A stretch of 37,247 nucleotides of DNA from NCBI GenBank assembly GCA_964249105.1, contig CAXUBB010000001.1:1-37247 (forward strand), written 5' to 3'. The DNA is from an uncultured Bryobacteraceae bacterium (GTDB taxonomy: Bacteria > Acidobacteriota > Terriglobia > Bryobacterales > Bryobacteraceae). The position numbers and the translations under genes were made by a program. Each line of letters opens with the position of its first letter. The stretch's first letter is position 1. Under the pieces are notes generated by a model. That model made no database searches. It was not told the origin of the DNA and saw nothing but the letters and a program-made list of their open reading frames with translations. Shown here one piece after another: positions 18,022 to 35,116 of this stretch.

Positions 18022-18072
18022 GTCCGATTGTAGCGGGCCTGTATCTTCGATATATTGCAGCCCGGATCTGCT

Positions 18073-18861: not shown

Positions 18862-18954
18862 TCAAAATTATTGATATCGATCATTGAACGGCAAGTCTCC
18901 TGTTTTCAAACGCTTGACGAAGAAACAACAATGTAACACCCCGCTGGAGAGGCG

Positions 18955-20124: not shown

Positions 20125-21547
20125 TGTTGACGATTGTAACGGTCTGAGCCGCTGTCGGCCGAACAGGAGAAGTTGCTAAGCTTACCAGAATTAAGCTTGC
20201 CACGGAAACAAATAGGGCCGGATAAATGGCGTCAACACTATCTACATAGCCATGAACCCAGCTCGGTCCATGCTGCTGTACGATTTGCCAAGCGACCGTA
20301 ACCACTGTTCCAAAGAAGATGGATGTAATTGCGCCGGGTGTTGTCGCTCGTTGCCAGAAGAATACTGCTAAGACTGCGGGGGTAACGGCCGCCCCATAAA
20401 CAGTGTAAGCGTACAAGGATGCCTTCAGCACGGATTCAAACTGCGTAGCTTGCAGAACAGCGAAAATACCGAGTAAAACGACAATGAATCTGGATACAAT
20501 CAGAGTTTTCTTCTGGCTTGTATTTTTGTCAATAAAGCGCTCATAAACATCATGAATCAGATTAGTAGCGGGAGAAAACAGATAGTTATTAGCCGTCGAT
20601 ATTACTTTTGCAAAAACACCTCCCAGCAGAATGGCCCCCAACCAAGAGGGCAGAGCGGTCTTAGCAGTTAATGGAATGATTTCGCGGGGACGATCGGTGT
20701 GCAGTTTTGCGCTGGCTATGACGGCAAGCATAATCAGCAAGGTTTCGAGGGTTACCGTCCCAACGATCCAACCAATTACGGATTTGCGCGCATCGCTCTC
20801 GGAGCGAGCCGAAAAAAACTTTTGATACATCCCCTGATTCCCAATGAGCAGAAGCATGGTGGGCAACATGAGTCCAATTGCCCCGGAAAGTGAGTAGTTG
20901 CCAAGCGGTTGAAAGTGCGTTTTGGGAAGCGCCTGGTGAACAACGGCCCATCCTCCTGTTCGAGAAAGCAAAATTGGCACGGCAACAATAACTGTTACCG
21001 TAACCAAAGAACCAATGAATAAATCGAGATAAGCAATCGAAGCCATACCTGCCGCAGCGGTAAAGAAGATTACGAAGCCTGCCAGGATGTAAAGACCTGT
21101 TGTCCTGTCAATCTGCGGAAAGATGAGGTGGAGGATGTCGCCTCCGCCGATGAATTGATAGCTAGTGATGATGGTATAAGAAATAACAATAGCAATGGTC
21201 GCGAGCACTCGCGCGACTGAGTTATACCGCGCTTCAAGCAGATCTGGAACCGTAAACTGCGCAAACTGCCGGGCGCGCCCCGCAATCAGACTGATCAGAA
21301 GAAGTCCTATCCATCCTCCCAGGGGCTGCCATAATGCAACGAAACCGTTTCTATAGGCATTTTCGGCTCCCGCCAGCAGACTTCCGGCACCGATCCAGGA
21401 CGAAAGAAGCGTAAACACTAAAACAGGCCAACTGAGTGATCTTCCGGCAACCAGAAAATCAGTTTTGTTCTTCACCTGCGCAGCTTTGAACAGCGTAATG
21501 CTGACAAGCAGCACAACTAGCAGTGAAACAGTCACAGCGTAGATCAT
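20114..21547 (-). CDS. Sodium:solute symporter (SSS) family transporter
   Basis: 477 aa, about 13 TM helices, with the GRSLSWPVLVFTLLSSWIGAGSLLAGAENAY signature region. Confidence 0.85.
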   Translation of the reverse strand: MIYAVTVSLLVVLLVSITLFKAAQVKNKTDFLVAGRSLSWPVLVFTLLSSWIGAGSLLAGAENAYRNGFVALWQPLGGWIGLLLISLIAGRARQFAQFTVPDLLEARYNSVARVLATIAIVISYTIITSYQFIGGGDILHLIFPQIDRTTGLYILAGFVIFFTAAAGMASIAYLDLFIGSLVTVTVIVAVPILLSRTGGWAVVHQALPKTHFQPLGNYSLSGAIGLMLPTMLLLIGNQGMYQKFFSARSESDARKSVIGWIVGTVTLETLLIMLAVIASAKLHTDRPREIIPLTAKTALPSWLGAILLGGVFAKVISTANNYLFSPATNLIHDVYERFIDKNTSQKKTLIVSRFIVVLLGIFAVLQATQFESVLKASLYAYTVYGAAVTPAVLAVFFWQRATTPGAITSIFFGTVVTVAWQIVQQHGPSWVHGYVDSVDAIYPALFVSVASLILVSLATSPVRPTAAQTVTIVNNDC

Positions 21548-21585
21548 TACGGGACTATCTTAAAGCAGATCGGATCGACACACGG

Positions 21586-24500
21586 CTAAAGCCGAATAGT
21601 AACGGTTAAATCCCGGCCAGGGATCAGCGCCCCTGCTGCGGTGCCTGATAGCGTCAGCGAAACATTCATCGTGATAGCACCCTCTACCTGTAACGGCGGT
21701 AAGCTCACGCCGTTGAGAAGGGTGGAATTGCTTGAATCGGACGGAATCGCAAGGCTGCAATATTCAACGCCGTTTTGCAGGAGCTGAATTGCTGTGTCAT
21801 AGCCTGAAGCTGCCTGGTTCAGGCCGGCCCGGACATCTCTCACGGCATGTGAAGACTCAATTACCAGCGGTGGTGCGGCATTTTGCTGTGTTCCCAAATA
21901 CCCGCTGACCTGCAATGAAAATTGACCGCCTGAGAGAGTGCGTAGCCCCCCATCGTTAGTTTGTGTAAAACAGACTTGCTGTGCTTGGCTATTGCCGAAA
22001 GCGTTGGTTACAAAAAACTCAGCCGCGCTGACGCGAGCATCGGGCAAGCTAAAGGTATGTAGGAAATTAATAGAAGCTCGATTTTCAAAGAATCCCGATG
22101 CAAACGGGACAATAATGACTTTTGTATCTAGTTGCAAAACTGGCGCGCCTGCGGAATGATTTATTGCAGGGGAGCCGTAAGCGCCTCGTACGACTGACAG
22201 TTTTTTGGTGGAAGTGTCAATCGAGACGATACCCATCACTTCAGTATCGATTTGGATAAAATCACCTGTCTGCGCTGCTGGAAGCGAATTGACCTGGATA
22301 GTAGCGGTAGTCGAATCAAGCCCTGCGGCGAGCACACACGAACTCGCATTCGCTAATTCATTCCAGTAGAAAAGTTGAAGAGTACCGCTTGCAACGGAAG
22401 CAATATTTGCCAGATTGCTAAAGCCGACTTGAGAAATAACAAGGTTCCCGCCTCCTGGAGCATCGAGCGAGAAAGCAGGAATGGCAGGAACTCCAAAATC
22501 AGCTTGCCCTTTTCCAAGTGCTAGGCGTGTCAACGGACAAAGGTCCGGGACACCTTCCTGGTTGTAAACGTTAGCTGCCCTACCGGATATTTGTATGACT
22601 GTACCTGCTTGATATGCAATTTCAAACTGGACAGGGCTTACAGGAGATACTGCGGCAAATCTCCATGATGGTTCGCAAACGACAAATTCGCTTGTAAGAT
22701 CGGGCAGAACCGACCAAGGTGATGCGACGGTTAATGTTGAACTATTGTTGTTTGAAATCAAGCGCTCTTGACCAGCCCCGGAGCCCTCGATAATTCGCAC
22801 CACCTTACCGGCATATGCTAGATTGGTCGCACCCATGTCAAGGCAGCTCAGGGTATTCGAAGACGCACCTGTAGCCTGTAATAGTGAGGAATACTCAAAC
22901 CGGTAGTACAGGTTAACGTGATCAAAGCTCGCGTCTGGAGGACCTATCGGTAAATTAAGTAAGCCGTTATCAGTGAAATTTGAGCTAATTGGCAGTCCTG
23001 TGCCGATACAGTACAGCATTTGCGGGCTGATGCCACGGTACACATTAAACGAACTTGCATAAGCAGGCAAACTGATCTCCGCGATGGTCACACAATTTGT
23101 GTTGGTTCCCACTGGCACCACTGCCGGAACAGTAAAAGAGAGCGGGCCTTCCTGATTGGCTCCATCCACCGCGCTCACAGCGTAATAGTAGGTGCTTCCT
23201 CCAGCTAAGGAACCGCCGGTAGTCTGGAACTGTGCTGCTAAGCTAAGCAGCGGTATGTTGGTTGTTGTCGCACTCGGCTTTCGCGGTTGAGCAAAATTGA
23301 CGGTTATTTTGTCTGTGGCTGTTCCATCATTGAGAGTCTGAATAGATTCTTCCGTCTTGAAATCGAAGTATTCAAAGCCCCCGTTTGAGCTGTTATGCGC
23401 AATTAAACCAATTAGTGGACGGGGAGTACCTACTTGAGATCCCGGCTGCCTGCCTGCTCCAGCTAATATAGAGGGATCATCACTATACCAGTCGTCATTG
23501 TGAACTTGGGCCAACACAGTAACGGCTTGGAAGTTTAGAGACGGTGAGAGCTTGACAACCCGAAATGGCACGCGCTCGAATCCCTCTTTGAGGTATGTAA
23601 GCGCAATAATGTCTCCCGGACGTACCTTTAGAGCTCGAAAGCTTGTCTGAAACTCAACAAATAAGTTACCTTTTGTTGATTTATCCAATTGTCGGAGAAG
23701 TACTCGCGTAGCTTGATTAAAATTTGATATCCCAATTGCCGTTGACTGACTACTAATCTCATACCCAATCAGTGCTGAATCTTCGGAATCGGCGATTGAG
23801 AGACTATCCTGTTGGTACTCGTTTGTCTTATCTTGGAACTCAACACTCAACCGGTTTGAGGTTTCGGCGACTGTACGTGATAAGAGCCGCACCGAAGAGC
23901 TTCCGTCCGAGTTCCGCATAATACCCGAAAATGGCGCTGAAGCATCGCTAAATTCATAAGCTGGCCACCCTCCCGCTAGGGGAATGGTGCTATTCCCGCC
24001 ATCAGGCAGCGCTGATTGTTGTGCGGCTAATGTCGTTTCAGGCAACAACTCAAGCAAGCCGTTCGCACCGTAACGCAGCATCAGACTTGAGGCGGTCCGA
24101 ATACCGCGGACCACAGCAGCTACACTCTGTCGTTTCGTCAGAATCAAGTTGCACTCGTAACGGGGAACTTGGATTATGTTTCCATTGAAATCTGTCGTGT
24201 TGATGACGGCGCTGCAAAAAGCTGCGGACGAGGCAAATGAGGCAACATTCAAGTCGGCCAGAGTCCACCCACAGCGGTTTAGAATATCTAACAACACCCA
24301 AGCAGGATTATTCGAGTATTCAGTCCCTTGTAAACTTGCATTGGCGTCGTAGACATTCACTTGCATGCCTTGCAGCAGCACTTCCACGTTCGGCAAAGCA
24401 CTACCACTGCTAATTCTGTTTGGAACCACAACAGCCAGAACTGTCAGGCTCCCATATGGGTCCCCAAGCGGGTTTCCATTCGCATCTGAAAAGTCTAAAT

Positions 24501-25527
24501 TGAAGTTGCCTGTTCGGGTGCCCGTCGTAATAATGTTGTACCAGCCCGTGCTGGTCATATCTGTGCCAGCAGACGCTTGCGGAATTTCGATATCGTTTAC
24601 GACGACCTTCAAAATGTTTGTGATCGGTCCCAACCCAGTCAGCACTTCCATATGGGTCAAATTTCCATCATTTCTGGCAAAAATAACTGGTGATTTGAGC
24701 CATCCAGCCCCATATACCACGGGAACTGAATCGTTGTATTTGGCAGAGTTACTCAGCAATGGCGATAAGTGAGTAGCTTTATCACCAGACGTTCTAACGT
24801 TAACTACCGAGGGGACAAATTCAAAACCGCCGAAACGCCGGGTTAAATTTCCTGATGCATCTTTATTAAACATTCCGCGCTGTTCGCAATTCAAGCGTGA
24901 CTTGTCGCAGCTTGTAAAAACCTGGCCGGAGCCGAAATTACCAACTCCTCCCGCCACATCAGGCGAGTATCCGCATCGGTAGAATCGCGAGAATATCCCG
25001 TTTGATCCGCCATCCTTAGCTTCTTGCCGCTGATCAGGACTGCTAGGAAAGTTCCAAGGACAGGTACGCTGGATGCGCACATCGGGCAAGGAGATACGTT
25101 GTAAGCTGAGTTTATTCAGAAAGCTGATTGTAAAAAGGTTTTCGGTAATCTCATCGGGATCTCCGGCAATCCCTCGGAACAACACCGTGCTTTCAGTCGT
25201 TGTCAATCGGCTAGGAAGATCCGCGAATGCAAAGTAGACCGTCAGTTGTGAACCCTTGAAGCCAATTGCTGCATTGAGCTCGGAGAGTGCCGAGTCAGCA
25301 TTGGCTAAGGTGATAGATAATTGAGATACGCCGTCCATCGCGTCGTCGCTGGACAACTGCAAGTCGAACAGATTATGCTTTACAACTCTTGCTGCATAGA
25401 TCTGCGAATTGAGAATGGCGTTGTGCGAACACCATCGCTCCACATCGCCGGAAGGCAGAGTGCACTCAAAAAACAGCAATGGAGTATCTGTTTCTGCTTG
25501 CTGTTTCGCTTGGTTGATGGTTAGCAT
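21586..25527 (-). CDS. Tail tip / central fibre protein, apparent fusion of a lambda gpL-like domain and a gpJ-like host-specificity protein
   Basis: 1313 aa. The first ~240 aa resemble lambda gpL: LLFFECTL..., then C156/C185/C207/C214 in RTCPWNF..YRCGYSPD..SCDKSRLNCEQRG..RRFGGFEF. Compare gpL CTWTYRGDECGYSG..DKCSKCLSGC..NFGGF, recalled from memory. Residues ~405-421 SNNPAWVLLDILNRCGW match the gpJ-family motif (lambda J SNNMAWCLWDMLTH). FN3-like segments follow downstream. Confidence 0.7.
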   Translation of the reverse strand: MLTINQAKQQAETDTPLLFFECTLPSGDVERWCSHNAILNSQIYAARVVKHNLFDLQLSSDDAMDGVSQLSITLANADSALSELNAAIGFKGSQLTVYFAFADLPSRLTTTESTVLFRGIAGDPDEITENLFTISFLNKLSLQRISLPDVRIQRTCPWNFPSSPDQRQEAKDGGSNGIFSRFYRCGYSPDVAGGVGNFGSGQVFTSCDKSRLNCEQRGMFNKDASGNLTRRFGGFEFVPSVVNVRTSGDKATHLSPLLSNSAKYNDSVPVVYGAGWLKSPVIFARNDGNLTHMEVLTGLGPITNILKVVVNDIEIPQASAGTDMTSTGWYNIITTGTRTGNFNLDFSDANGNPLGDPYGSLTVLAVVVPNRISSGSALPNVEVLLQGMQVNVYDANASLQGTEYSNNPAWVLLDILNRCGWTLADLNVASFASSAAFCSAVINTTDFNGNIIQVPRYECNLILTKRQSVAAVVRGIRTASSLMLRYGANGLLELLPETTLAAQQSALPDGGNSTIPLAGGWPAYEFSDASAPFSGIMRNSDGSSSVRLLSRTVAETSNRLSVEFQDKTNEYQQDSLSIADSEDSALIGYEISSQSTAIGISNFNQATRVLLRQLDKSTKGNLFVEFQTSFRALKVRPGDIIALTYLKEGFERVPFRVVKLSPSLNFQAVTVLAQVHNDDWYSDDPSILAGAGRQPGSQVGTPRPLIGLIAHNSSNGGFEYFDFKTEESIQTLNDGTATDKITVNFAQPRKPSATTTNIPLLSLAAQFQTTGGSLAGGSTYYYAVSAVDGANQEGPLSFTVPAVVPVGTNTNCVTIAEISLPAYASSFNVYRGISPQMLYCIGTGLPISSNFTDNGLLNLPIGPPDASFDHVNLYYRFEYSSLLQATGASSNTLSCLDMGATNLAYAGKVVRIIEGSGAGQERLISNNNSSTLTVASPWSVLPDLTSEFVVCEPSWRFAAVSPVSPVQFEIAYQAGTVIQISGRAANVYNQEGVPDLCPLTRLALGKGQADFGVPAIPAFSLDAPGGGNLVISQVGFSNLANIASVASGTLQLFYWNELANASSCVLAAGLDSTTATIQVNSLPAAQTGDFIQIDTEVMGIVSIDTSTKKLSVVRGAYGSPAINHSAGAPVLQLDTKVIIVPFASGFFENRASINFLHTFSLPDARVSAAEFFVTNAFGNSQAQQVCFTQTNDGGLRTLSGGQFSLQVSGYLGTQQNAAPPLVIESSHAVRDVRAGLNQAASGYDTAIQLLQNGVEYCSLAIPSDSSNSTLLNGVSLPPLQVEGAITMNVSLTLSGTAAGALIPGRDLTVTIRL

Positions 25528-25537
25528 GATTGTCGTC

Positions 25538-26335
25538 CTAGGCTGCTGCCTCGATACTTACGGTTGTGGCGTATGAGTTAACGTCTTCTGCGATGATCTG
25601 GAGCTGTTCAATGGCCCAGTAAGCGTTTGCATATACTCCACCGGCGGTGGTAGTGGGCAGGTAGCGCGAGGGAGAGATCTGAGACTCTAACTGCATTCCG
25701 AAGACATTTGCTTGTGCTCCGGCCTCCAGGCTAAGGCCCACAGCTATAGTAGACCCGCCATCACTCAGCCGACTGCTCAAAATCAACCGGTTCCAGCCTG
25801 AAGTCAAAATCATCTGCTTTGATTGCTGAGAATTTGGACCGCGTTGAAATACCGTAATAGGAGTTTGTTGAGTAGCTGCTGCATATAAAGAGAAGCAATA
25901 CTGGTAATTAGCTGGAACTTCCAGCACTTGCAATAATTCCTGTGCACTCTGCCCATTGTTAGTAATGCTTTGGGCCGCTGTGCCGCCGAGCGGATCAATT
26001 ATACCCGCCCGAATCTGTAAAGAGCTCGCTTTCTGCCAAGATGCAGTTGTTAGGTCCGTGCTCGACACCAACATGTTTCCGGTTGGGTCAATAAAAGTAA
26101 ATGCACTTAAAGGACCTTTGCAAGCTGTAAAATGCGATTGCAAAGACTGAACGTCAGTAAGCGACAAGTTAGCATATTCTAATTGCCACAGTGTACGCTT
26201 CGCTCCGGAATCTGCCAGCAGAATCATGTTGCCGTCCGATAGAATGTTTTTAATCGTGCGTGTAATCCTCGTTTTGCGTAGCGGATATTGTGCTAAAGCG
26301 CCACTGGTAAGTTGCGGGTAGAAAAGGTTAGCCAT
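25538..26335 (-). CDS. gpM-like tail tip protein paralog with ~170-aa C-terminal extension
   Basis: The N-terminal ~90 aa align by eye with the adjacent 119-aa protein (YPQLTSGALAQYP..DG..W..L....L...F....G....F.F.DP.GN). The extension is beta-rich. Confidence 0.55.
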   Translation of the reverse strand: MANLFYPQLTSGALAQYPLRKTRITRTIKNILSDGNMILLADSGAKRTLWQLEYANLSLTDVQSLQSHFTACKGPLSAFTFIDPTGNMLVSSTDLTTASWQKASSLQIRAGIIDPLGGTAAQSITNNGQSAQELLQVLEVPANYQYCFSLYAAATQQTPITVFQRGPNSQQSKQMILTSGWNRLILSSRLSDGGSTIAVGLSLEAGAQANVFGMQLESQISPSRYLPTTTAGGVYANAYWAIEQLQIIAEDVNSYATTVSIEAAA

Positions 26336-26687
26336 TCGTTTCGATCACCCACAAAGTACTGGAGCCGTTATCGACTCCAACGAAATCATTTGCCATGCTT
26401 GCAACGCCTAGCCTGCAATTCGGCACATTCTGATTACTGAAAGGGTCTGGAAATTCAAAAAGCGAGTATTCACCCTGTTGCTCCAGGAAAAAAGCCTCAA
26501 GCTGATTCATCTCTGACTCGTTCAGTAGCTGAAGGTGAACTTGCCAGCGCCGATATTGCCGCCCTTGATTCAAAAAGCGCTGGTCGGAACCGTCCAAGAA
26601 TCGCATTACTTGTACGCTCTGGCCCAACACAACACTGATTGGGTACTGCGTCACAGCGCCGGAACTGAGAGGAGGGAACGTAAGCAT
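26328..26687 (-). CDS. Minor tail protein, lambda gpM-like
   Basis: 119 aa. RFLDGSDQRF...LEAFFLEQQGEYSLFEFPDP compares with lambda gpM RFGDGYSQRA...LESFLEEHGGWKSFLWTPP (from memory). It sits directly after the tape-measure position. The ATG abuts the upstream stop (TAGATG). Confidence 0.6.
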   Translation of the reverse strand: MLTFPPLSSGAVTQYPISVVLGQSVQVMRFLDGSDQRFLNQGRQYRRWQVHLQLLNESEMNQLEAFFLEQQGEYSLFEFPDPFSNQNVPNCRLGVASMANDFVGVDNGSSTLWVIETNG

Positions 26688-27272
26688 CTAAATCTCCGCG
26701 ATCACGTCATTTAAGCTGGATGAGGTCAAAAGTGCGTTCTTGACAGCCTGCACGATTTCAGATTGCTTGTATACTGGCTCTTGTGCTGGCGCATTTTGGG
26801 AAGCCCCTCGGGAGTTGACGCTTGCCGAAAGCCCTCCAGAAGTTACAAACATTGTTTGCTGCTGAGAGTCGGGAAGCGCAAATCGCACTAGCGGCGCCTC
26901 GCTCTTTCCGCCACCATCAAATAAATTAGTTAGGCCCGAGATTAGAGAATTAATTCCTGATTCCAGAAGATTTCCTCCAATCAGGCTGGCCGCACCGTCA
27001 GAGGCAGTCTTTATTAAGCTTGTCCACTCATTATTTGTGCTAGACGAAGAGCGCGATTTCACGCCAGCGTTGGACGGTGAACCAAACTGAATGCCTTTAA
27101 CAGTAGACACGTTGTTGCTTGAGAGTCTCTTCAAATCTGTTGCAGCACTGATCTTTGTAGTCTGTCGAACTGCTGCGTGTATTTGAGTGACCAAGTTCGC
27201 TGGCGTAAACGCATTATTTGATTTCTGGCTCCCAACCAAATTGCCAGTCGTTGATTTTCTAAGTTTTGCCAT
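26688..27272 (-). CDS. Putative tape measure protein, unusually short (194 aa)
   Basis: The call rests on position, immediately after the G/GT chaperone pair and before the gpM-like gene. It has a strong RBS (GGAGGAG) and a Gly/Ser/Leu-rich segment GGNLLESGINSLISGLTNLF. No family motif was recognised. Confidence 0.45.
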   Translation of the reverse strand: MAKLRKSTTGNLVGSQKSNNAFTPANLVTQIHAAVRQTTKISAATDLKRLSSNNVSTVKGIQFGSPSNAGVKSRSSSSTNNEWTSLIKTASDGAASLIGGNLLESGINSLISGLTNLFDGGGKSEAPLVRFALPDSQQQTMFVTSGGLSASVNSRGASQNAPAQEPVYKQSEIVQAVKNALLTSSSLNDVIAEI

Positions 27273-27983
27273 TTTGCTCCTCCGTCCGCCACACTTCGTC
27301 CAAAATCAGGAGAGCATCGGCGGTTTTTGCATCTACCCACCAAGGAAATCCGCCTCCGAATTGCTTCCACCATCGGAAGTGCTGGAGAAATGTTTTGCTT
27401 TGTGCCGAGATGATTGATTTCGGACACTGAAGTGATACTGTGTCCTTGCGAGCCCAGACCACTCTTTTATTGATCGGCCCTGATTTGTCCATCCATGCAC
27501 AATTGCGCACAGCCACCAATCCGCTTGATCGGCAAGTCTCGCATTCCCACGCGGCTGGTGAGGAAAACTGAAAATGGAATGCGATTAGGAGTTTTTTCTT
27601 TCTTCGTCGGAAAGCTCAAGCTCCGCCCGGACAGCCGAGATAATTTCGTCACAGAGCACTTCTGGGCCTTTTTCGATCAAAAGCTCGGCTGAGGCCTTTT
27701 CCCCATCAATGGCTAATCCCTCAACAACCACAAGGCCCCATTCAAGGTACAGTTTACGAACTAGCAGATCCGCCAAGTGCGCCTCGTTTTTTTCCAGTGC
27801 GTCGCCTGCCTTCAAGAATTCGTACCTTGAACTCAGGAGTTGTATGCGCTCTACCAGCTCAATTCGTTGAGCGAGTGACATCTTCCGTACCGCATACCGA
27901 ATGCCTTTGTACGTATCGCTATTCCGCCAAACAACACTGGAGTACTCAGCTTGTTTATGCAAAGGCGATGTAAATTTCGTCAT
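27259..27983 (-). CDS. Tail assembly chaperone frameshift product, gpGT-like (-1 shift at 27591-27597)
   Basis: The -1 frame is open without stops from the slip site through the 86-aa track ORF: ...DEERKN|LLIAFHFQFSSPAAWECETCRSSGLVAVRNCAWMDKSG...EEQNGKT*. It ends 14 nt inside the tape-measure gene. I verified this codon by codon. Confidence 0.6.
27540..27597 (-). other. Programmed -1 ribosomal frameshift signal: slippery heptamer A_AAA_AAC plus downstream stem
   Basis: On the mRNA strand the heptamer is at 27597-27591. After a 7-nt spacer, CGCAUUCC (27583-27576) pairs perfectly with GGAAUGCG (27547-27540) across a 28-nt loop. Confidence 0.55.
27585..27983 (-). CDS. Tail assembly chaperone, gpG-like (zero-frame product)
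   Basis: It lies between the tube and tape-measure positions. It is acidic, ends ...ELELSDEERKNS*, and has a slippery heptamer 3 codons before the stop. The start is probably the ATG at 27981-27983 (AAGGAA upstream); the track start at 28001 is also possible. Confidence 0.65.
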   Translation of the reverse strand: MTKFTSPLHKQAEYSSVVWRNSDTYKGIRYAVRKMSLAQRIELVERIQLLSSRYEFLKAGDALEKNEAHLADLLVRKLYLEWGLVVVEGLAIDGEKASAELLIEKGPEVLCDEIISAVRAELELSDEERKNS

Positions 27984-29124
27984 CAATTGTTCCTTGAGCA
28001 AAATTGTTGTTGAAAGCCCATGCTAACCGCGGCTCGGAGTCAACATAGGCTGGCATTTCTGGTGTAACGTTCGGCATATAGATGCCCATCAGTTGTCCCT
28101 GCTGCTGGCCCAACTGAAGCATGACTGAAATGCAGTTTCTCTGTTTAGCCGCAGCATACAAGGCGCTTGTTTCGGCATCGTCTTGCACGAGGAGGCTGAA
28201 TTCTGAGCTCACCTGTCTCTCACCGGGAACAACCGCTGTGGGAAAGCAGGCCCCAAATTCATGCTGACGAGTCTCAAGATTATTTTTGATCCGAACCTTA
28301 GCGGCTGTGAGTGTAAAGAATTGGCTCGCAGGCTGTCCCAGCCAGACTTGTCCCAGGTGTCCGGGTACGCCCTGGTAATTGAAAGCGCCAATGGTCGGCT
28401 CGACTGGGTAGCTGCTAAGGGCCGCCATTCCCGGCTGAAAGCTGCCTGCATCCAGAATATTTGCAGCAGGTCCGGCGAAAACTAAATCATGATAATCACC
28501 ATTTACGGAAATTTCCAAGCTATCGATTGCCGCGCCAGTAACGACTCTACTGATGGGCGAAGCCGCATCCCAGTAGTCGTAAAGAGTGACGCTGGGCAGA
28601 ATGGTTGATAGGGAATATGTGAGTGTCGGGCAAAGATAGCTACCAACTGCAGGCGCCTGTGAGAACGGCGCATTAATGGTGAGAATCGAAGCATCTGGAA
28701 CACTGATGACAAACCGTATTTCGCCGGCATAAGAAACAGCTGATCCCAAAGACACACCATGAGGACTTGTCGTCTGTATTGTTGTAGGGTTCACCGTGGA
28801 ACTGACCATAAGTCCTGTAGAAATCTTTGGCGGTGCGCCTAGCGCTCCTTGAAATAAGGGACCATAACACGGCTGCCCGGCTCCGCTCCAGGAGGTCAAG
28901 TATGTTCGCACTTGAAAAGCTGTTTTCCGCCTCCCGTTTTGTGATGCGCCTAAAAATGTGCGAGTTCCAGTTTTGTCGAGCCTTCGGCTCTGCTCCATCG
29001 CCTGTTGAGCCTGTAATCGCATTGCGGGAAAGCGGTTAGTAGACGTGATTGCTGCTGCTTGCGCATACGACGATTCGACCGCTGTATAAAAGCGGTTCGC
29101 ATTGGAGGGTATGTAGCGTGGCAT
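27955..29124 (-). CDS. Putative major tail (tube) protein
   Basis: 389 aa, and it is the gene immediately upstream of the G/GT pair, the lambda gpV position. No motif was recognised, so the call rests on synteny only. Confidence 0.45.
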   Translation of the reverse strand: MPRYIPSNANRFYTAVESSYAQAAAITSTNRFPAMRLQAQQAMEQSRRLDKTGTRTFLGASQNGRRKTAFQVRTYLTSWSGAGQPCYGPLFQGALGAPPKISTGLMVSSTVNPTTIQTTSPHGVSLGSAVSYAGEIRFVISVPDASILTINAPFSQAPAVGSYLCPTLTYSLSTILPSVTLYDYWDAASPISRVVTGAAIDSLEISVNGDYHDLVFAGPAANILDAGSFQPGMAALSSYPVEPTIGAFNYQGVPGHLGQVWLGQPASQFFTLTAAKVRIKNNLETRQHEFGACFPTAVVPGERQVSSEFSLLVQDDAETSALYAAAKQRNCISVMLQLGQQQGQLMGIYMPNVTPEMPAYVDSEPRLAWAFNNNFAQGTIDDEIYIAFA

Positions 29125-29133
29125 TTGTAAGAG

Positions 29134-29652
29134 CTAATTCCGGCTGACACTCAGATCGAAAGTGATTCGTGCCAATTGCACAAACCCCAAACCGCCAACT
29201 TTAGGCGATTGAAATTGGACATCATAAACGCCTGGAAAGAAAATCCCATCTCCCCAGTCGCCGATGTTGCTCCGCAAAACGTTAGTTATTGCTTCGACGT
29301 AGAAGTGAATCCATTGATCAACGTCGCTGAGTAGGTTTCCGCTCGTCCATACGTCTGCAACGACGGCCAATCCTCCGGACAATGACATGAATTTTTCTAT
29401 TTGAGTATTTTTAATTCCCGCGCTATAAAGACAAATTCTAGGATAGCTAAATTGGATATCCCGGTCGCCCATGTCCTGCGAAGCGGAGCTAAGTATGATT
29501 TGTGTCGGGTTAATCATCGGCACATTCGCGTTGCAGGAGTTGTTAAGCGCGGTAATCTCCTGCTGCAAAGCTGTTTCTCCAGTCAACAGGTCAAACACTT
29601 TTTGAACTGCAAGTATTGTCAGAGGTGGCATAGCGTTTAACCTCGTTGCCAT
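29134..29652 (-). CDS. Phage structural protein, head-tail joining / tail terminator position
   Basis: 172 aa, between the head genes and the tube gene. It overlaps the upstream ORF by 16 nt. No family was recognised. Confidence 0.4.
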   Translation of the reverse strand: MATRLNAMPPLTILAVQKVFDLLTGETALQQEITALNNSCNANVPMINPTQIILSSASQDMGDRDIQFSYPRICLYSAGIKNTQIEKFMSLSGGLAVVADVWTSGNLLSDVDQWIHFYVEAITNVLRSNIGDWGDGIFFPGVYDVQFQSPKVGGLGFVQLARITFDLSVSRN

Positions 29653-30416
29653 CGCCGGATACAGGCGACGGTCACATCTGGTATCTGTCCGTTTTTCGGG
29701 CTGGCCCCCGAAACGAGACCACTACTTGGCATCTGCCACGGAGATCCGATGACAATTGGGGAACTATTTTGAAGGCTTAAGCCTCCCTGCGACGTGCTGG
29801 CGTAACCATTCCAGCCAGTAGCCGTGATTGGCGCCTGGCTGCTGGCCTCAACCATGCTCACCTGTATGCTTGCGGAACCGTTGAGAATCATTCCGTTAAT
29901 TGGACTCATCGCACTCTCGTTGCCGAGCCGATCCACCCAAGTCACCTGAACAAAGATCGATGAAGCCTGAAATGATCCAGTTCCGTTGGAAATTGCTGGG
30001 AGAGCAGGCTTTGGCAAAGGGTTCAGCACCACCCCAATACCGCTCGCCAAGCATAGTTCACCGACAGCATCAGATTGCTGTTGATATTCGTTCCACTTTC
30101 CCTGAAAGCGAGTATTAAGCTGAACGTTGTACGCCTCTGCATAAACTCGTGCCAGCGAATCAAAACACAACCAACGGAATAGAGTAGGGGTTACGACGAC
30201 CGTTGACAAACCAATTCTTGCTCGGTTGAGCCACTGCGGGTCTGATAATCCTGCTCTCAAGAGATTAAGCATGAGCTTGTCGCTGATCTCATTGGTTGCA
30301 AGCTGTATCTTTGCCTGAACGTCAATACTATGGGTCGATGATACTTGTACGAGAGATCCCTCAAACGGCAAAAGATCATCCAGCGTGACAACGTCCGGAT
30401 CGGTGAAAAGCGCCAT
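29637..30416 (-). CDS. Phage structural protein, head-tail connector position, with beta-rich C-terminal half
   Basis: 259 aa with an AGGAG RBS. The N-terminal third loosely resembles gp6-type connector openings (VTLDDLLPFEGS...). The call is positional. Confidence 0.4.
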   Translation of the reverse strand: MALFTDPDVVTLDDLLPFEGSLVQVSSTHSIDVQAKIQLATNEISDKLMLNLLRAGLSDPQWLNRARIGLSTVVVTPTLFRWLCFDSLARVYAEAYNVQLNTRFQGKWNEYQQQSDAVGELCLASGIGVVLNPLPKPALPAISNGTGSFQASSIFVQVTWVDRLGNESAMSPINGMILNGSASIQVSMVEASSQAPITATGWNGYASTSQGGLSLQNSSPIVIGSPWQMPSSGLVSGASPKNGQIPDVTVACIRRWQRG

Positions 30417-30427
30417 GAGTTCTACTC

Positions 30428-30745
30428 CTACTTTTTGCTGACCGTCTTAGTCGTCTGTAGATCAGAATCGGCTATGATTGCCACTTGTACTCGGCGCGCC
30501 AACTCCGCTTTTTCCGCTACTTTCTTAGCAGCTTCTTGCTGTTGGTGGAAAAGCTCTTTCTGCTCGACGCTCGCAAGAGTTGCTCTTCGTTCGAGAATCA
30601 TCTTGGCGGCTACGAAACGCGGCACTTCGCACACGGTACCGGCTTTCCCGCCGTCTGAGGTCTCAAGACTGACAACCAACGGATGCGGCTCTGTTAAGCT
30701 TTCTTCAATCTCTCGCACTTTTCGAAAGTATTGTTTTACGTCCAC
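30428..30745 (-). CDS. Small phage protein of unknown function (head completion/decoration position)
   Basis: 105 aa. GTG start with an AGGAGA RBS at 5-6 nt spacing. It is the first gene after the coat-gene hairpin. Confidence 0.45.
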   Translation of the reverse strand: MDVKQYFRKVREIEESLTEPHPLVVSLETSDGGKAGTVCEVPRFVAAKMILERRATLASVEQKELFHQQQEAAKKVAEKAELARRVQVAIIADSDLQTTKTVSKK

Positions 30746-30756
30746 AGGTATCTCCT

Positions 30757-30787
30757 AAAATGAAATGGGAGCTGCATCGCAGCCCCC
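30757..30787 (-). terminator. Intrinsic-terminator-like hairpin just after the coat gene
   Basis: The mRNA strand reads GGGGGCUGC-GAU-GCAGCUCCC (9-bp stem with one mismatch) followed by AUUUCAUUUU. It starts about 30 nt after the coat stop. Confidence 0.45.
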
Positions 30788-30819
30788 AGGAAACTACTGA
30801 CACTAACAACTAATAATTA

Positions 30820-31731
30820 TTAGCTATTGACCTGTACGGCAAAGTTGTTCCGGAGAACGCCGCAACCGTAAAGAATGTCTACTGTAAACTGCTGCGATAA
30901 GGTGTTCGGTTGATAGCTCATCACCACTCGAATGCCGAAATTCCCCATTTCGGCATATTCAGCGACAGCTCCCGTGCCCGGTAGCGGTTGGGGAAGACGG
31001 CGCACAACTAACCCGAGGGCATCACGCGTAAACGCAAGATTATGCGTATTAATTGTAGAGGAGCCCGTAGCGGCAACGTACTGTGAACGGAAGATAAAAA
31101 AGTCCTTCATCTTGCCGACATTACCCTCAACCAATGCTTTAAGGCCAGCATCGCCGGATGAGTAGTACTCACTGAAGCGCGGAATTTGACGAATCTGGGA
31201 ATAAGCGTTGGAATCGACCACTAGGTACTTCGGAGCAGTAGCGGGAACTTTTGCGGCAAACAAAGCGGTTTCAGCCATATCGATGGTGCCCTCCGTGATG
31301 GGCGAACCGGCCGAGCCAACAGGCGCATTCGCGGAAAACTGCCCGTACAGGTTGAGAAGATCCCGCTCCACTCTTTCAGCAATGGCGATCACTGCTGGCT
31401 GCATGTATGCCTTCAACAATTCGGGGAAGGCCAACGCCTTGGTAACATCCGGAATCTGAAAAGTCGCTTCAGCATGCGTATTCAAAACAATTTGAGCGTT
31501 TCCCAAGCTCGGGTTCTGGGGGGTAACTGTACCGCCTTCAGCAATGTTGTTCGCAACCAGAACTGGTGGAATCGGCACGTTAACAGTGTCGCCTGCATGC
31601 GCCAGCACAGGTTCATAGTCGCGATTCACTAAATTGCCCATAATGAGATTTCCCATCAGGGCTGGTAAAGCATCGGCAGCGACGAGCTTTACAATTGCAT
31701 TCGCCAGATTGGCGGAAGTAATAGTTGACAT
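30820..31731 (-). CDS. Major capsid protein, P22 coat-like family
   Basis: Start is the ATG at 31729-31731, with AGGAG 6 nt upstream (Met10 of the track ORF). MSTITSANLANAIVKLVAADALPALMGNLIMGNLVNRDYEPVLAHAGDTVNVPIPP resembles the P22_CoatProtein N-terminal pattern, from memory. It follows a scaffold-like gene. Confidence 0.7.
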   Translation of the reverse strand: MSTITSANLANAIVKLVAADALPALMGNLIMGNLVNRDYEPVLAHAGDTVNVPIPPVLVANNIAEGGTVTPQNPSLGNAQIVLNTHAEATFQIPDVTKALAFPELLKAYMQPAVIAIAERVERDLLNLYGQFSANAPVGSAGSPITEGTIDMAETALFAAKVPATAPKYLVVDSNAYSQIRQIPRFSEYYSSGDAGLKALVEGNVGKMKDFFIFRSQYVAATGSSTINTHNLAFTRDALGLVVRRLPQPLPGTGAVAEYAEMGNFGIRVVMSYQPNTLSQQFTVDILYGCGVLRNNFAVQVNS

Positions 31732-31751
31732 AATTCTCCTAAATGATTGGT

Positions 31752-31769
31752 GCGGCAAGTTTCTGCCGC
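31752..31769 (-). other. Small hairpin GCGGCA-N6-UGCCGC in the 114-bp scaffold-coat spacer
   Basis: Read directly from the sequence. It lies 21 nt upstream of the coat ATG region. Its function is unknown. Confidence 0.25.
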
Positions 31770-31845
31770 TCTCTCCTTAAGCCCCTGTGGATTCGCGAGC
31801 TATAGGTGATTAGTGATGACTGATAAGTATTCTGAAAAACAGCTA

Positions 31846-32424
31846 CTACGAGCCGTATACGGATTGCGACGCCAACCGAGAGATTTCTTTCCTGACTTGG
31901 TCAAGCTCCTCTTTACTCATCCCAGGTCTGATTGCATTAAGGTCAATCGGCGCTGGCGTCGAGGTGTTGTTTTTGGCTGTTTGCGCTCCGCTACCGCCAG
32001 CGATCCGTGCTGGCAATAATTCAGGATTTTCTTGCACAAAACCAGCAAGGTATTCCTGCAGCGACTTGTTCTCCATGCCCCGGCCCATTAACCGGCCATC
32101 CTCTGCCCGAACCACGTCGTCCTTTACGGCGCGGAATGCCAGATCGACTTTTGCGACTCCCAGCCGCTGCAGTTCAGCTCGAACTTGTGAACTTCGGTCA
32201 GCCTCCTCCGCCAGCGCACGTGCTTTTCGATTTTCGTCAACCAGTTGATTAAGCCGCAATTCCAGAGACTCCCGTCGTTTGCGCTCATCCTGTAGCTCGG
32301 CTTTGTAGGCAGGTTCGGCTTTCTGCTGTTCACTGCGCACAAACTCACTGATAGCCTGCTTGACAATTTCCTTCACGTCAACGCTGGCAGACGTCTGGTT
32401 TTCAATCGGTTCTTGATATGACAC
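31846..32424 (-). CDS. Scaffolding protein
   Basis: 192 aa, highly charged, with coiled-coil-type sequence (AELQDERKRRESLELRLNQLVDENRKARALAEEADR). It lies between the portal and coat genes. GTG start with a GAGGAG RBS. Confidence 0.6.
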   Translation of the reverse strand: MSYQEPIENQTSASVDVKEIVKQAISEFVRSEQQKAEPAYKAELQDERKRRESLELRLNQLVDENRKARALAEEADRSSQVRAELQRLGVAKVDLAFRAVKDDVVRAEDGRLMGRGMENKSLQEYLAGFVQENPELLPARIAGGSGAQTAKNNTSTPAPIDLNAIRPGMSKEELDQVRKEISRLASQSVYGS

Positions 32425-32440
32425 TCAGCTTTCACTCCTC

Positions 32441-33823
32441 TTAAGCAAACTGCACGTTAATCTCGTGTGTAATTTGATCCTTTGTTTCCTGATTGGCATC
32501 ATCCAGATATTTGGTCGCCAATCGCTGATAAATTTGTCGCTTCAGCGTTGGAGACTCAATCCCTAACTGAAGAAGATTTTTAGCATCTTGTAATTCGGTG
32601 CCAAAATCACTTATGTCTACTTCGTCAAGTCCCGTGACACAAACGGTGGTTTCGTCTTGACGAGCCTTGCAGATCCCGTTTAGTACCTTCCTAATGCAGT
32701 CTTTGATGGTCGTGCCGTAAGCTCGCAGCACTTCCTGAGTAATTACAAAATCCATCTGCTTACTCAAGGCCGACTGTGCATGGCCGCTTACCATCTCTCC
32801 GGACGCTTGTGAAAGATAGCAAACTCGGTAGATCTCTTCTTTCAGCGACTCAAGATTAGTTGCGGCGATTTGATAAACTTTGCCGTCTGGCTCAGTCCAG
32901 CCAAATTTATCTGTTGGCCCGAGTTGAATGTAGTAGCTTTCTCCAACAATCTGGTTCCACTCGCGGTCAGAGTAAATCACGGGCATTGCGAATAGGCCCA
33001 TGGTGATGGCCCAGGCCAGCGCATTTGATTTATTGAAATGTTCGAGCTGAAGATGTGCCGCCTTGTTCGTCAGCCAAAGCCCATCAGTAACTTGCATGGT
33101 GATCAGCGGAACTCGGTTTTCGCGACTATAAGCGTGAGGACCGCTATCGACCAAAGAAATGACACTTTCGCTGCCTTCACGCTCGAACCGCCGATAGATT
33201 TGGAATCCCGAGCGATCGTAGTATCTCCAATAAGTTTCTTCAACAAGATCCGGCGAGTTCACATTCGGTTGACGGCGTATCTTCTGGCGAAGAACAATCC
33301 ACTCATACTCGCCATGCTCGTCAAGACTCCAGTTGATTAGATTTTCGGCTTGATACTGGACCAGGTAAGCGCGTGATAATCCCACTGCATCCTCTTCAGC
33401 TCTGTTGGTGGGAGTCGTCGCAGCGCGCGGAAAGTCAATCAGAATGTGGGTTCGGCCCGCGACAAGCACATCTGTGAAACACTGCCTGAAAAACGTGGCG
33501 AGTCTGGTGCCCTTACGGTCGCAATCATCTAAGAAAGCAGGAAAGAATTTATCACCAGCTTCAAGGAAACCTTGGAATTGGACCGAAGGTTCGCGACGGA
33601 AGAGCGTTGATGCATACCAATCAACAATTGACCCCACATAGTTCTGATAGAACGCACGTTGCAGGCGCTCGCTATAGACATCTAGAGGCTCTTTTTGCCG
33701 CCGCAGCAAATACTCACCGGCTCGGTGTTTGAACTGCAAACCGCCCGCGTACAGATCGCGGTAGGTCCGAAGTGTATGTTGCTGCTTTTTAAAGTCTGGG
33801 TGTTCTCGGTCTATATCAATCAT
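32441..33823 (-). CDS. Portal protein (DUF4055-type, tentative)
   Basis: 460 aa and first gene of the block, directly upstream of scaffold and coat. DVYSERLQRAFYQNYVGSIVDWYASTLFRREP resembles the conserved N-terminal portal segment I associate with DUF4055. This has not been verified. Confidence 0.6.
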   Translation of the reverse strand: MIDIDREHPDFKKQQHTLRTYRDLYAGGLQFKHRAGEYLLRRQKEPLDVYSERLQRAFYQNYVGSIVDWYASTLFRREPSVQFQGFLEAGDKFFPAFLDDCDRKGTRLATFFRQCFTDVLVAGRTHILIDFPRAATTPTNRAEEDAVGLSRAYLVQYQAENLINWSLDEHGEYEWIVLRQKIRRQPNVNSPDLVEETYWRYYDRSGFQIYRRFEREGSESVISLVDSGPHAYSRENRVPLITMQVTDGLWLTNKAAHLQLEHFNKSNALAWAITMGLFAMPVIYSDREWNQIVGESYYIQLGPTDKFGWTEPDGKVYQIAATNLESLKEEIYRVCYLSQASGEMVSGHAQSALSKQMDFVITQEVLRAYGTTIKDCIRKVLNGICKARQDETTVCVTGLDEVDISDFGTELQDAKNLLQLGIESPTLKRQIYQRLATKYLDDANQETKDQITHEINVQFA

Positions 33824-33979
33824 GCAACGCTGCTCTCAACCAACCTTATCCGCTCATGACAGTAACGCCACCCTTCCCGCCCAAGGCGTGAAAGTCAGCT
33901 CATCCTATTGATTACAGAAAAGATAGATTTTTTTAAGCTTTTGTGAACAGGTTCCCGGACTGGATCAGTAAACTGAAGT

Positions 33980-34801
33980 TTGCGGTCAGTCCTAATTCAG
34001 TCTGAGATTAACAATCGAGAAGCTCTCATCGCGGAGCTCTGGGAATACGGCACTGCTGGAATTATCGAAAACTTGGATACCGTACGGGCGTTCTTTGAGA
34101 ATGACGGTTCTCTGCTGCAGATGCTGAATCAGCTAAGTTGCCCGGTACTCGAAGTAACCGACGAAACGAACCAAGCCAGCTTATCCGGATTTTTCCCAAA
34201 CCACGATCCGATATACGCTGGCCAGCGCTTTTTCATTGTGTCTTCTGCCATGAATGATCCAGCACCTCCTGATCGGAAGCGTTTAGTTATAGATGCTAAC
34301 GATGCTTTCGGAAGCGGGAGTCACGAAAGCACCCAGCTCGTCATTCAGGCATTGGAAAAACGTTTGCCGCCAAACGCCATTGTTCTCGATGTGGGATGTG
34401 GCTCCGGTATTTTGTCGGTAGTAGCACAGGAACTAGGCGCGGCTCGGGTTTTTGCTTGCGACATCCACACTGGAGCTGTTCATTCTGCCCGGAAGCACTC
34501 AGTCAAATCGCACTTTTTTGTTGGCAGCATCGACGCCCTCGCTCCTGCTGTCGCTGATGTAGTCATCGTAAATATCAGCGCTAACACGATTGATCTGCTT
34601 ACCCACGAACTTCACCGCATCATAAGGTCGGCTGGTCTGTTGATACTAGCTGGATTCACCATCGACCGAATTCCTGTCAAAATCCACCCTGACACAATTT
34701 TTCAGTTGAATGATTGGCTCTGTTGGCTGTGCCGTCCCGAAGACATATTTTCAGTAGGACCGCAAGCAAATTTGCAACCCTTTCCCGCCCAATGGTGGTG
34801 A
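33980..34801 (+). CDS. prmA: Ribosomal protein L11 methyltransferase
   Basis: IDANDAFGSGSHESTQLVIQALEK...VLDVGCGSGILSVVAQELGAARVFACDI carries the PrmA substrate and SAM motifs. The TTG start is uncertain. Confidence 0.75.
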   Translation: MRSVLIQSEINNREALIAELWEYGTAGIIENLDTVRAFFENDGSLLQMLNQLSCPVLEVTDETNQASLSGFFPNHDPIYAGQRFFIVSSAMNDPAPPDRKRLVIDANDAFGSGSHESTQLVIQALEKRLPPNAIVLDVGCGSGILSVVAQELGAARVFACDIHTGAVHSARKHSVKSHFFVGSIDALAPAVADVVIVNISANTIDLLTHELHRIIRSAGLLILAGFTIDRIPVKIHPDTIFQLNDWLCWLCRPEDIFSVGPQANLQPFPAQWW

Positions 34802-34869
34802 AATCCAAGGCTCTTTCAACTGTTACAGCTAGTATGTAACATTGAGCACGATAGATGTCTCAAACCAGC

Positions 34870-35034
34870 ATGTTACGCAATTCACTATTTCTCGTGATCT
34901 TCTTTGTTCTTCTGATTGTGTGGCTACTGGGTTGGACTGCATTCCACCTGGCAGGCGGTCTCATACATATTATCCTCGTCATTGCAGTAATCTCGTTAGT
35001 CATACATTTCGTTCGGGGACGCAGCTCTGTTTAA
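34870..35034 (+). CDS. Small two-TM membrane protein (lmo0937/DUF5670-like), 54 aa, below the ORF-track cutoff
   Basis: My own translation from the ATG at 34870: MLRNSLFLVIFFVLLIVWLLGWTAFHLAGGLIHIILVIAVISLVIHFVRGRSSV*. It has the typical ..WLLGW....GG.IHILLVIAVI....R pattern. The overlapping 70-aa track ORF (34842-35054) looks non-coding. Confidence 0.65.
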   Translation: MLRNSLFLVIFFVLLIVWLLGWTAFHLAGGLIHIILVIAVISLVIHFVRGRSSV

Positions 35035-35116
35035 AACAAAACTGCGGGCAATAGCGCCCTTAAATTTATAATCCTGATCGCGTTACTACCTCCCTAAAGA
35101 CTGTTCATATTAACCT

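Follow-up and report, generated by a model that had tools for sequence, protein, structure and literature searches.

Why should a bacterial chromosome keep an undisrupted set of phage head and tail genes with no terminase beside it? The locus that raises this question lies in a 37,247-nucleotide stretch of DNA (hereafter the window) from an uncultured Bryobacteraceae bacterium (contig CAXUBB010000001.1, assembly GCA_964249105.1). Here, 13 co-directional open reading frames (ORFs) for a phage-like head and tail occupy 12.2 kb of the minus strand (33823-21586), with prmA on one side and a sodium:solute symporter (SSS) gene on the other. A preliminary description of the window had proposed an intact, terminase-less cluster resembling a gene transfer agent (GTA). 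From the analysis below we consider it probable, with some reserve, that the cluster is GTA-like, namely a particle locus fixed in the order Bryobacterales whose particles carry host DNA, with an unlinked terminase serving those lineages that have lost the large terminase gene (terL). On its sequence features the cluster is a strong candidate for a new and independent GTA-like viriform lineage.

The ORF list and family searches against Pfam, PHROGs and NCBIfam bore out the 13 contiguous, intact, same-strand ORFs of the preliminary description, and its 156-bp spacer, divergent prmA and SSS flank are as described. The ORF junctions, given there as overlapping or within ~16 nt, do include overlaps (up to 47 nt), but the gaps reach ~90 nt. 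Searches for terL-like sequence (tblastn, E ≤ 10, the entire 37 kb), for tRNAs in the window and for att-like direct repeats bracketing the cluster all returned nothing, and the window holds no integrase, replication, lysis or mobility genes. All window genes outside the cluster that were tested and gave a Pfam match are cellular, and the cluster itself contains no prohead protease. The scaffold, the three connector ORFs, the tail chaperone G and the tape measure are without a significant family match and were assigned by position alone.

The cluster is widespread in one bacterial order. The portal protein has 3283 homologues, of which the best 120 are 69-100% identical, several of them on Mb-scale contigs; each source name given among these 120 is an acidobacterial metagenome-assembled genome (MAG), most matches being unnamed. 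Scanning one genome per species located the collinear cluster at a minimum of 578 loci in Bryobacterales/Terriglobia genomes (designated by L numbers). The best 80 carry the labels Bryobacteraceae, Bryobacterales, Terriglobia or 'Acidobacteriaceae' with one exception, L038 (CBAAAA01), where the cluster sits on an 11.6-kb contig of a 'Solirubrobacteraceae' bin; this is probably bin contamination and not cross-phylum transfer. In ~75 of these 80 loci all 13 genes are collinear and intact, with identities of 78-96% for the coat, 65-90% for the portal and 58-88% for the J-like hub protein. Split cluster genes were seen in L007, L008, L012, L018, L027, L044, L065 and L076 (terL in L018 and L044); their confinement to some MFD long-read MAGs makes sequencing error a more probable cause than pseudogenisation. 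Two MAGs each contain two diverged copies (L002 and L011 in CAXTWQ01; L004 and L041 in JBJMGL01), and in CAXTWQ01 one copy has terL and the other lacks it, each adjoining a prmA. The simplest explanation for such MAGs is a mixed or contaminated bin and not a genome with paralogues.

At least 586 'viral' contigs in IMG/VR also carry this portal, mostly of ≤17 kb (the largest 22.6 kb), and those checked start at terL. The cultured Bryobacterales bacterium KBS 96 has the cluster as IMGVR_UViG_2522125054_000002 (locus L114), with terL and all 13 genes in the same order and 34-86% identity (coat 86%, portal 65%). Demina et al. 2025 (Microbiome 13:79, PMC11924767) name this region among their 'group (i)' Bryobacterales-specific proviruses, a group to which regions of Ca. 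Solibacter usitatus Ellin6076 and of Paludibaculum fermentans P105 also belong. By sequence and gene order the window cluster belongs to this same element family, although its copy is reduced relative to group (i) members, lacking terL and a fourteenth gene described below. In that account the elements are widespread proviruses; a GTA interpretation, a fixed locus, flank co-divergence, purifying selection, missing phage modules and recurrent terL loss do not form part of it.

The chromosomal position of the cluster is conserved. In the populations closest to the window (L162, L163 and L235) both junctions are as in the window, so that the interval between SSS and prmA is syntenic in the closest related populations found. 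After the J-like gene follow, on the same strand, the genes for SSS, an M24 peptidase, a GAF-ANTAR protein and an alpha/beta hydrolase. This series is kept in nearly all loci with a visible downstream flank, down to 47% J identity, and on complete chromosomes as well as metagenome contigs; a few loci lack SSS or have insertions in the series. The divergence of cluster and flank runs in parallel. Between L164 and the window, the portal is 70%, the coat 89% and J 65% identical, and the flanking SSS is 80%, M24 65%, GAF-ANTAR 88% and the hydrolase 66% identical. In Mantel tests of pairwise distances, J correlated with M24 at r = 0.89 and with SSS at r = 0.90 (p = 0.0005 in each case), by which measure the cluster has diverged vertically together with its host flanks.

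The host series (17005-21547, minus strand) follows the cluster in L162-L166 and in many of L169-L248, and the gap from the last cluster gene to the downstream genes is only 10-160 nt in most loci. No terminator-like site is present between J and SSS in the window, and the GAF-ANTAR protein, three genes downstream of the cluster, is 79-94% conserved. It is possible, as far as gene arrangement can suggest, that co-transcription or regulation links the cluster with these host genes. An Rfam search of the window found no ANTAR-type or other known RNA element (zero matches at the gathering threshold, and none at E ≤ 1 over 17000-35200).

These data bear on the view that the family consists of ordinary temperate phages or proviruses that spread horizontally and integrate beside the symporter gene, the window copy being defective. 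The geNomad, CheckV and IMG/VR provirus calls (PMC11924767) agree with such a view, as do distant relatives that are real phages and an upstream flank that differs between genera. However, neither the window nor the flanks examined contain an integrase, repressor, replication or lysis genes, a tRNA or att repeats, the element measures only 12-17 kb where both ends are seen, and the same downstream neighbours recur. Divergence follows the host flanks, and copies with the same junctions have reached saturation at synonymous sites. The J-like protein points the same way. Phage receptor-binding proteins are usually much more variable, yet 109 of the 120 best J homologues measure 1309-1351 aa, and every one of the 120 is 62-87% identical over ≥94% of the query length (dN/dS, or ω, of the J-like gene 0.04-0.05). 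This constancy of length and end-to-end identity is unlike that of receptor-binding proteins in an arms race. We regard an ordinary provirus as very unlikely.

Selection on the cluster was estimated as NG86 dN/dS among the window, L003, L004, L005 and L041. Each of the 13 genes gave a value of 0.02-0.25, lowest in coat, portal and J; synonymous divergence (dS) in the window's clade is ~0.6-3, near or at saturation, where the ratio is only approximate, and because saturation lowers dS the bias in ω is upward. Rhodobacterales GTA genes have a dN/dS of 0.06-0.08, as cited in PMC9254644, and by this measure purifying selection on the cluster is as strong as in known GTAs. The slippery heptamer A_AAA_AAC that precedes the stop codon of the tail chaperone gene G is identical in 69 of 69 loci, lying 6-9 nt before the stop as counted from its last codon. 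Together, the flank co-divergence, the low dN/dS and the invariant heptamer indicate an old, vertically inherited and selected locus and not a decaying remnant, as the preliminary description had argued from the integrity of the genes. A non-functional remnant that decays slowly would account for the loss of both terminal genes in the window's clade and others. Against it stand the low ω of all 13 genes at saturated dS, their integrity in ~75 loci, the restriction of splits to some MFD long-read MAGs, the invariant heptamer, and a hairpin after the coat gene whose stem has changed in a compensatory manner; we consider it extremely unlikely. Nor were the hallmarks of a recent prophage remnant found, such as disrupted genes, dN/dS ~1, leftover integrase, att or tRNA sequences, or, among loci located with the cluster itself, a site that varies between close relatives.

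The missing terminase has a history that can be read from the relatives. Among 62 with enough upstream sequence, 44 have terL in cis, as a 441-aa ORF on the same strand that ends ~24 bp before the portal (PF03237 1.9e-8, phrog_2 8e-30). Across 53 full-length terL copies ω is 0.05-0.13, which indicates that packaging matters in most lineages. No conserved ORF that could be a small terminase was found upstream of terL in 48 loci. Sister loci of the window (L009, L011, L030, L031, L076 and L168) have a divergent prmA followed by terL and the portal, whereas in the window's clade (clade A) the divergent prmA is followed directly by the portal, across a spacer of 156-179 bp in L002-L005 and up to ~290 bp in other clade-A loci. 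The window spacer, which has -35/-10-like boxes (TTCACA...TATCTT, 33947-33920), can be aligned with the sequence between prmA and terL in L009 and L011, including both boxes and the terL start codon; the start reads ATGAGG in the relatives (confirmed in L011) and ATAAGG in the window at ~33849-33844. This alignment indicates that terL was cleanly deleted and that the predicted cluster promoter now fronts the portal. On these comparisons the terminase-less state is derived, a secondary loss in the window's clade. The GTA-like reading of the preliminary description is largely supported, as the cluster has the evolutionary signature of a domesticated element, but the lack of a terminase is no part of the element's design. 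In L003, L004 and L005 the remnant terL ATG lies 27 nt upstream of the portal ATG, in frame, and would add 9 residues, whereas the ATA in the window is out of frame with the portal.

The loss has recurred. terL is absent from each clade-A locus with sequence upstream of the portal and also from L006, L007, L008, L010 and L012, from L025, L028, L033, L038, L053, L062 and L079, and from L057, L066 and L068; fragments persist in situ in L026, L037 and L075. When three cluster proteins were concatenated for a neighbour-joining tree, these losses fell at no fewer than eight separate places. The idea of a replacement terminase beside terL-less portals was rejected, the neighbours being an LssY-like protein, an amidohydrolase, a TPR protein, SurA, AsmA and insertion sequence (IS) transposases. 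The transposase genes lie directly upstream of the portal at L066:8428-9315 and L079:8760-9761 (DDE_Tnp_1 and Mutator family), which suggests that terL was deleted via an IS in these two lineages.

Selection on the structural genes continued after terL was lost. For concatenated genes, the two terL-less clades compared gave ω values of 0.067-0.096 (the window's clade) and 0.069-0.078, and terL-bearing pairs gave 0.054-0.105, and from this similarity it follows that loss of the cis gene did not relax selection on the structural genes. The portal is among the most constrained genes in the terL-less clades. Flank co-divergence, selection and the terL-loss data together contradict both the ordinary-provirus and the decaying-remnant readings.

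They leave room for a particle, or a head and a tail separately, exapted for a job that is independent of DNA, such as bacteriocin-like killing, carriage of proteins or adhesion, for which terL would be dispensable. Its loss or degradation at so many places with no relaxation of structural-gene constraint fits this idea, and so do the lack of a replacement beside the terL-less clusters and of an orphan terL among the closest homologues. We nevertheless think it unlikely: terL is under strong purifying selection where it is present, the constrained portal is the docking site of the terminase, packaging is required before tailed-phage heads mature and attach to tails, and an unlinked terminase has an RcGTA-type precedent (PMC9254644).

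The window copy has lost a gene at its other end too. A 923-973-aa ORF follows J within ~20 nt in ~45 of 70 loci with visible post-J sequence; it encodes an N-terminal domain and a TIM-barrel of the N4 gp65-type 'non-contractile tail sheath' (PF23845 1e-15 to 1e-18, PF23844). The ORF is absent from the window's clade and several others, independently of terL state, and it is taken to be ancestral because all of the most distant relatives with a long enough downstream flank have it. Judged from these relatives, the ancestral element is terL plus the 13 genes plus the N4 gp65-like appendage gene, ~16.5 kb in all, and the window holds a reduced version. About two thirds of the relatives thus have a structural gene that the 13-gene cluster lacks.

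Close relatives among cultured phages were not found: in 50,697 phage records the portal is at most 29% and the coat at most 28% identical. The coat family is not isolated from all else, an idea we rejected, as its representatives form a continuum from 74% to ~35% identity. The uncultured 53.8-kb contig IMGVR_UViG_3300031576_001304 (L250/L254/L256) is a candidate, on sequence and gene order, for the lineage of free phages that gave rise to the locus. It shares the order terL, portal, scaffold, coat, connectors, tube and G, with terL 44%, portal 33% and coat 65% identical. Unlike the cluster, it has extra genes between terL and the portal and between coat and tube, a DarB-like methylase/GNAT gene and other phage genes, and its size is that of a real phage where the cluster is a ~14-kb chromosomal locus. 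The comparison indicates what sort of phage the element would have descended from and how many genes it has since shed.

Of the known systems, RcGTA is similar in many respects. Both are chromosomally fixed head-tail clusters (~14-17 kb) with terL and the portal first in the ancestral form, without integrase, replication or lysis genes in cis, and vertically inherited across an order with dN/dS ~0.05-0.1; in both the tape measure is short, and DUF2460 distal tail, Phage-tail_3 hub/fibre and spike-fibre-like domains are present. However, RcGTA belongs to another phylum, its head module is independent, and it has an HK97-type coat with a prohead protease, where the cluster has a P22-type/Phage_capsid_4 coat and a scaffold. 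The cluster is also without RcGTA's g1-like small terminase and g14-type peptidase, and many of its copies add the N4 gp65-like gene. No homologues of RcGTA head genes were detected and no NCBIfam GTA head family matched, and the RcGTA portal ranks only 47-48 in a fold search with a low-confidence model of the cluster portal. On this evidence the cluster is not a member of Rhodogtaviriformidae. Among the baseplate proteins, DUF2460 and the spike-fibre domain score above their cut-offs but also occur in many phages, and GTA_megatron scores 15.6 bits on the cluster against a cut-off of 800.

BaGTA, VSH-1, Dd1, VTA and PBSX-like defective prophages are alike in that host-maintained particles come from a chromosomal cluster without self-propagation. 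No sequence relationship of the cluster to any of them was detected, and these systems encode a terminase within their clusters or close by, as a rule together with lysis genes. An F-type tailocin is ruled out by the portal, scaffold and coat. A capsid-forming phage-inducible chromosomal island or other phage satellite is likewise ruled out, there being no integrase, replication/primase gene or small terminase, and a full tail module being present. Under the definition of Lang, Zhaxybayeva and Beatty, GTAs have a chromosomal head and tail cluster without its own replication, integration and regulation genes, inherited vertically with the host and with purifying selection on the structural genes; the cluster shows each of these features. 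We found no literature describing an acidobacterial GTA, and to that extent the element is undescribed, as had been supposed; its family, however, is already catalogued as 'proviruses' in PMC11924767.

In the GTA-like reading that we prefer, the cluster is an old phage-derived particle locus fixed in the chromosomes of Bryobacterales (Acidobacteriota). It encodes a complete head, with portal, scaffold, a P22/HK97-fold coat and three connector proteins, and a short, non-contractile tail. The tail genes are those for the tube, the chaperones G and G-T (made by -1 frameshifting at A_AAA_AAC), a tape measure of short length, the two DUF2460 proteins and a J-like hub/fibre. The window's clade then deleted both end genes, the clean removal of terL leaving a promoter and a start-codon remnant before the portal. 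Particles may still be assembled and would serve, in the manner of GTAs, to carry host DNA. An unlinked terminase would package that DNA in lineages without terL, by analogy with Holosporaceae and some Rhodospirillales, whose RcGTA-type clusters have their terminase encoded away from the main cluster (PMC9254644).

Several points weigh against this reading. The cluster holds no small terminase, lysis genes or obvious regulator. No terminase for the window's lineage was found in the 37-kb window or in the flanks of L005, L162 and L163, sequenced for 0.8-10 kb ahead of the portal and ~10 kb beyond J. Among the 120 best homologues of TerL there was no orphan terL and no group attributable to clade A, and the closest homologue of unknown context (P0123) again has the prmA, terL, portal arrangement. 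Without a terminase, the heads of tailed phages normally neither mature nor join tails. The dN/dS values are approximate, as noted above; the loci were located by searching with the cluster itself, so that relatives with an empty site would escape; and repeated loss of both end genes might reflect a gradual wearing away of the cluster at its two ends.

Two further explanations draw on the same observations. Lineages without terL, the window's included, may have no terminase anywhere in the genome, a full head and tail particle being selected for a non-packaging function as a phage-derived machine unlike GTAs and tailocins alike; we judge this distinctly improbable. Alternatively, the locus could be a structural 'helper' module kept for another resident element (a satellite or second prophage) with its own terminase. 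This would explain why selection did not relax when cis terL and the distal appendage gene were lost, and why a small terminase is lacking in cis. We give it little credence, since no partner element is present in any flank seen, selection for a parasite's helper is hard to sustain until dS saturates in hundreds of species, and most lineages keep cis terL under selection.

GTAs are known from a handful of independent domestications, mostly in Alphaproteobacteria. The cluster has their evolutionary hallmarks across hundreds of species of Bryobacterales, and Acidobacteriota are among the most abundant soil phyla. Virus-detection pipelines and PMC11924767 count the locus as a provirus. If particles are made, a major route by which genes are exchanged in soil would have been overlooked, and the locus would be a systematic false positive in estimates of soil viromes and lysogeny. 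The repeated loss of the cis terminase without relaxed selection offers a natural experiment on what the particles are selected for, and cultured carriers exist (KBS 96, verified here; Ellin6076 and P. fermentans P105 according to PMC11924767).

The features of the locus are collected in Table 1.

Table 1. Features of the particle cluster and its flanks in the window, in order from prmA to SSS
Feature	Position	Strand	Basis or remark
prmA	33980-34801		divergent; beyond the 156-bp spacer from the portal
Spacer between prmA and portal	33824..33979	minus	apparently retained promoter region and terL-start remnant
Portal, 460 aa	32441..33823	minus	phrog_145 3e-55
Scaffold-like protein, 192 aa	31846..32424	minus	position between portal and coat; no significant family match
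Major capsid (coat) protein	30820..31758	minus	PF11651 P22_CoatProtein 6e-14; phrog_283 2e-41
GC-rich hairpin then T-run, terminator-/attenuator-like	30766..30788	minus	directly 3' of the coat gene
Head-completion/connector ORF 1, 105 aa	30428..30745	minus	position only; collinear; ω 0.04-0.10
Connector ORF 2, 259 aa	29637..30416	minus	weak phrog_8040 'head closure' match, 0.019; ω 0.06-0.16
Connector or tail-terminator ORF 3, 172 aa (165 aa in relatives)	29134..29652	minus	position; ω 0.07-0.14
Putative major tail (tube) protein, 389 aa	27955..29124	minus	directly upstream of G/GT; phrog_290 7e-10
Tail assembly chaperone G, 138-aa ORF (132 aa in relatives)	27585..28001	minus	position and frameshift arrangement
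Slippery heptamer A_AAA_AAC, -1 programmed frameshift	27591..27597	minus	read from sequence
T extension (G-T fusion)	27259..27594	minus	-1 frame, ~110 codons
Short tape-measure-like protein, 194 aa	26688..27272	minus	position only, between GT and distal tail proteins
Distal tail protein, DUF2460, 119 aa	26328..26687	minus	PF09343 4e-8, above its cut-off
Second DUF2460-like protein with GTA head-spike-fibre-like domain, 265 aa	25538..26335	minus	
J-like hub/central fibre, 1313 aa	21586..25527	minus	PF13550 1.9e-9; phrog_31 9e-25
SSS symporter	20114-21547	minus	starts 38 nt past the J-like stop

Among the head genes, the portal is 65-100% identical over >150 loci (ω 0.03-0.07); its fold model is of low confidence (mean predicted local distance difference test, pLDDT, 55.8), with phage portals as the only Foldseek matches. 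The scaffold-like protein is 59-92% identical in all loci (ω 0.04-0.08). The coat is the most conserved protein of the cluster (82-97% identity over loci; ω 0.02-0.05), and PF25209 is recorded on its homologues. Its ORF spans 312 aa, while gene callers give 303 aa in relatives, and the start is probably the ATG at 31731. The P22-type assignment made earlier holds at the level of the Pfam match, although at ~303 aa the protein is far shorter than P22 gp5. The hairpin that follows the coat gene has a strong predicted fold in 77 of 77 loci (median minimum free energy -24.6 kcal/mol). Hairpin and T-run are visible in all 18 loci inspected, with stem sequences that vary and complementarity that is kept. 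From its form and position the hairpin may be a partial terminator or an mRNA stabiliser, through which the dosage of coat protein would be set. Connector ORF 3 gave a weak profile match to a DUF3168 protein (E 0.42).

For the tail, 'tube' and 'tape measure' are positional calls, the former with the added support of its PHROGs match. A single-sequence structure model of the 389-aa protein was unusable (pLDDT 29). The G ORF ends ...AGA AAA AAC TCC TAA, placing the heptamer (27597-27591) two codons (6 nt) before the stop, and the recoding signal noted in the preliminary description is indeed preserved. In nearly all loci the -1 frame stays open between the slip site and the start codon of the following gene (ATG in the window), and the T extension is 39-85% identical among loci. 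The tape-measure-like gene is the least conserved (33-75% identity; ω 0.11-0.25). The next two proteins, labelled gpM and gpM' at first, are instead DUF2460 proteins of the RcGTA g12 type and not lambda gpM. The 265-aa protein has a weak PF09343 match (6e-4, residues 47-89) and an NF048003 GTA_spike_fiber match above its cut-off (2.5e-15, residues 86-231). Profile searches of the 389-, 265-, 259- and 172-aa proteins against solved structures gave nothing significant, the best match being that of the 265-aa protein to RcGTA Rcc01080 (E 0.013).

Two observations concern genes outside the cluster. An acyl-CoA dehydrogenase on the minus strand is divided between two ORFs, with the N and M domains at 13871-14515 and the C domain at 13373-13843; in L162 and L163 it is one 380-aa gene, and the split in the window is either a frameshift/pseudogene or an assembly error. 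On the plus strand, 35117-36985 encodes a 622-aa multi-pass membrane protein with no Pfam match, which the window's clade shares with L009, L011 and L076 at 70-93% identity and which in all of these lies near prmA (adjacent or within 4 kb).

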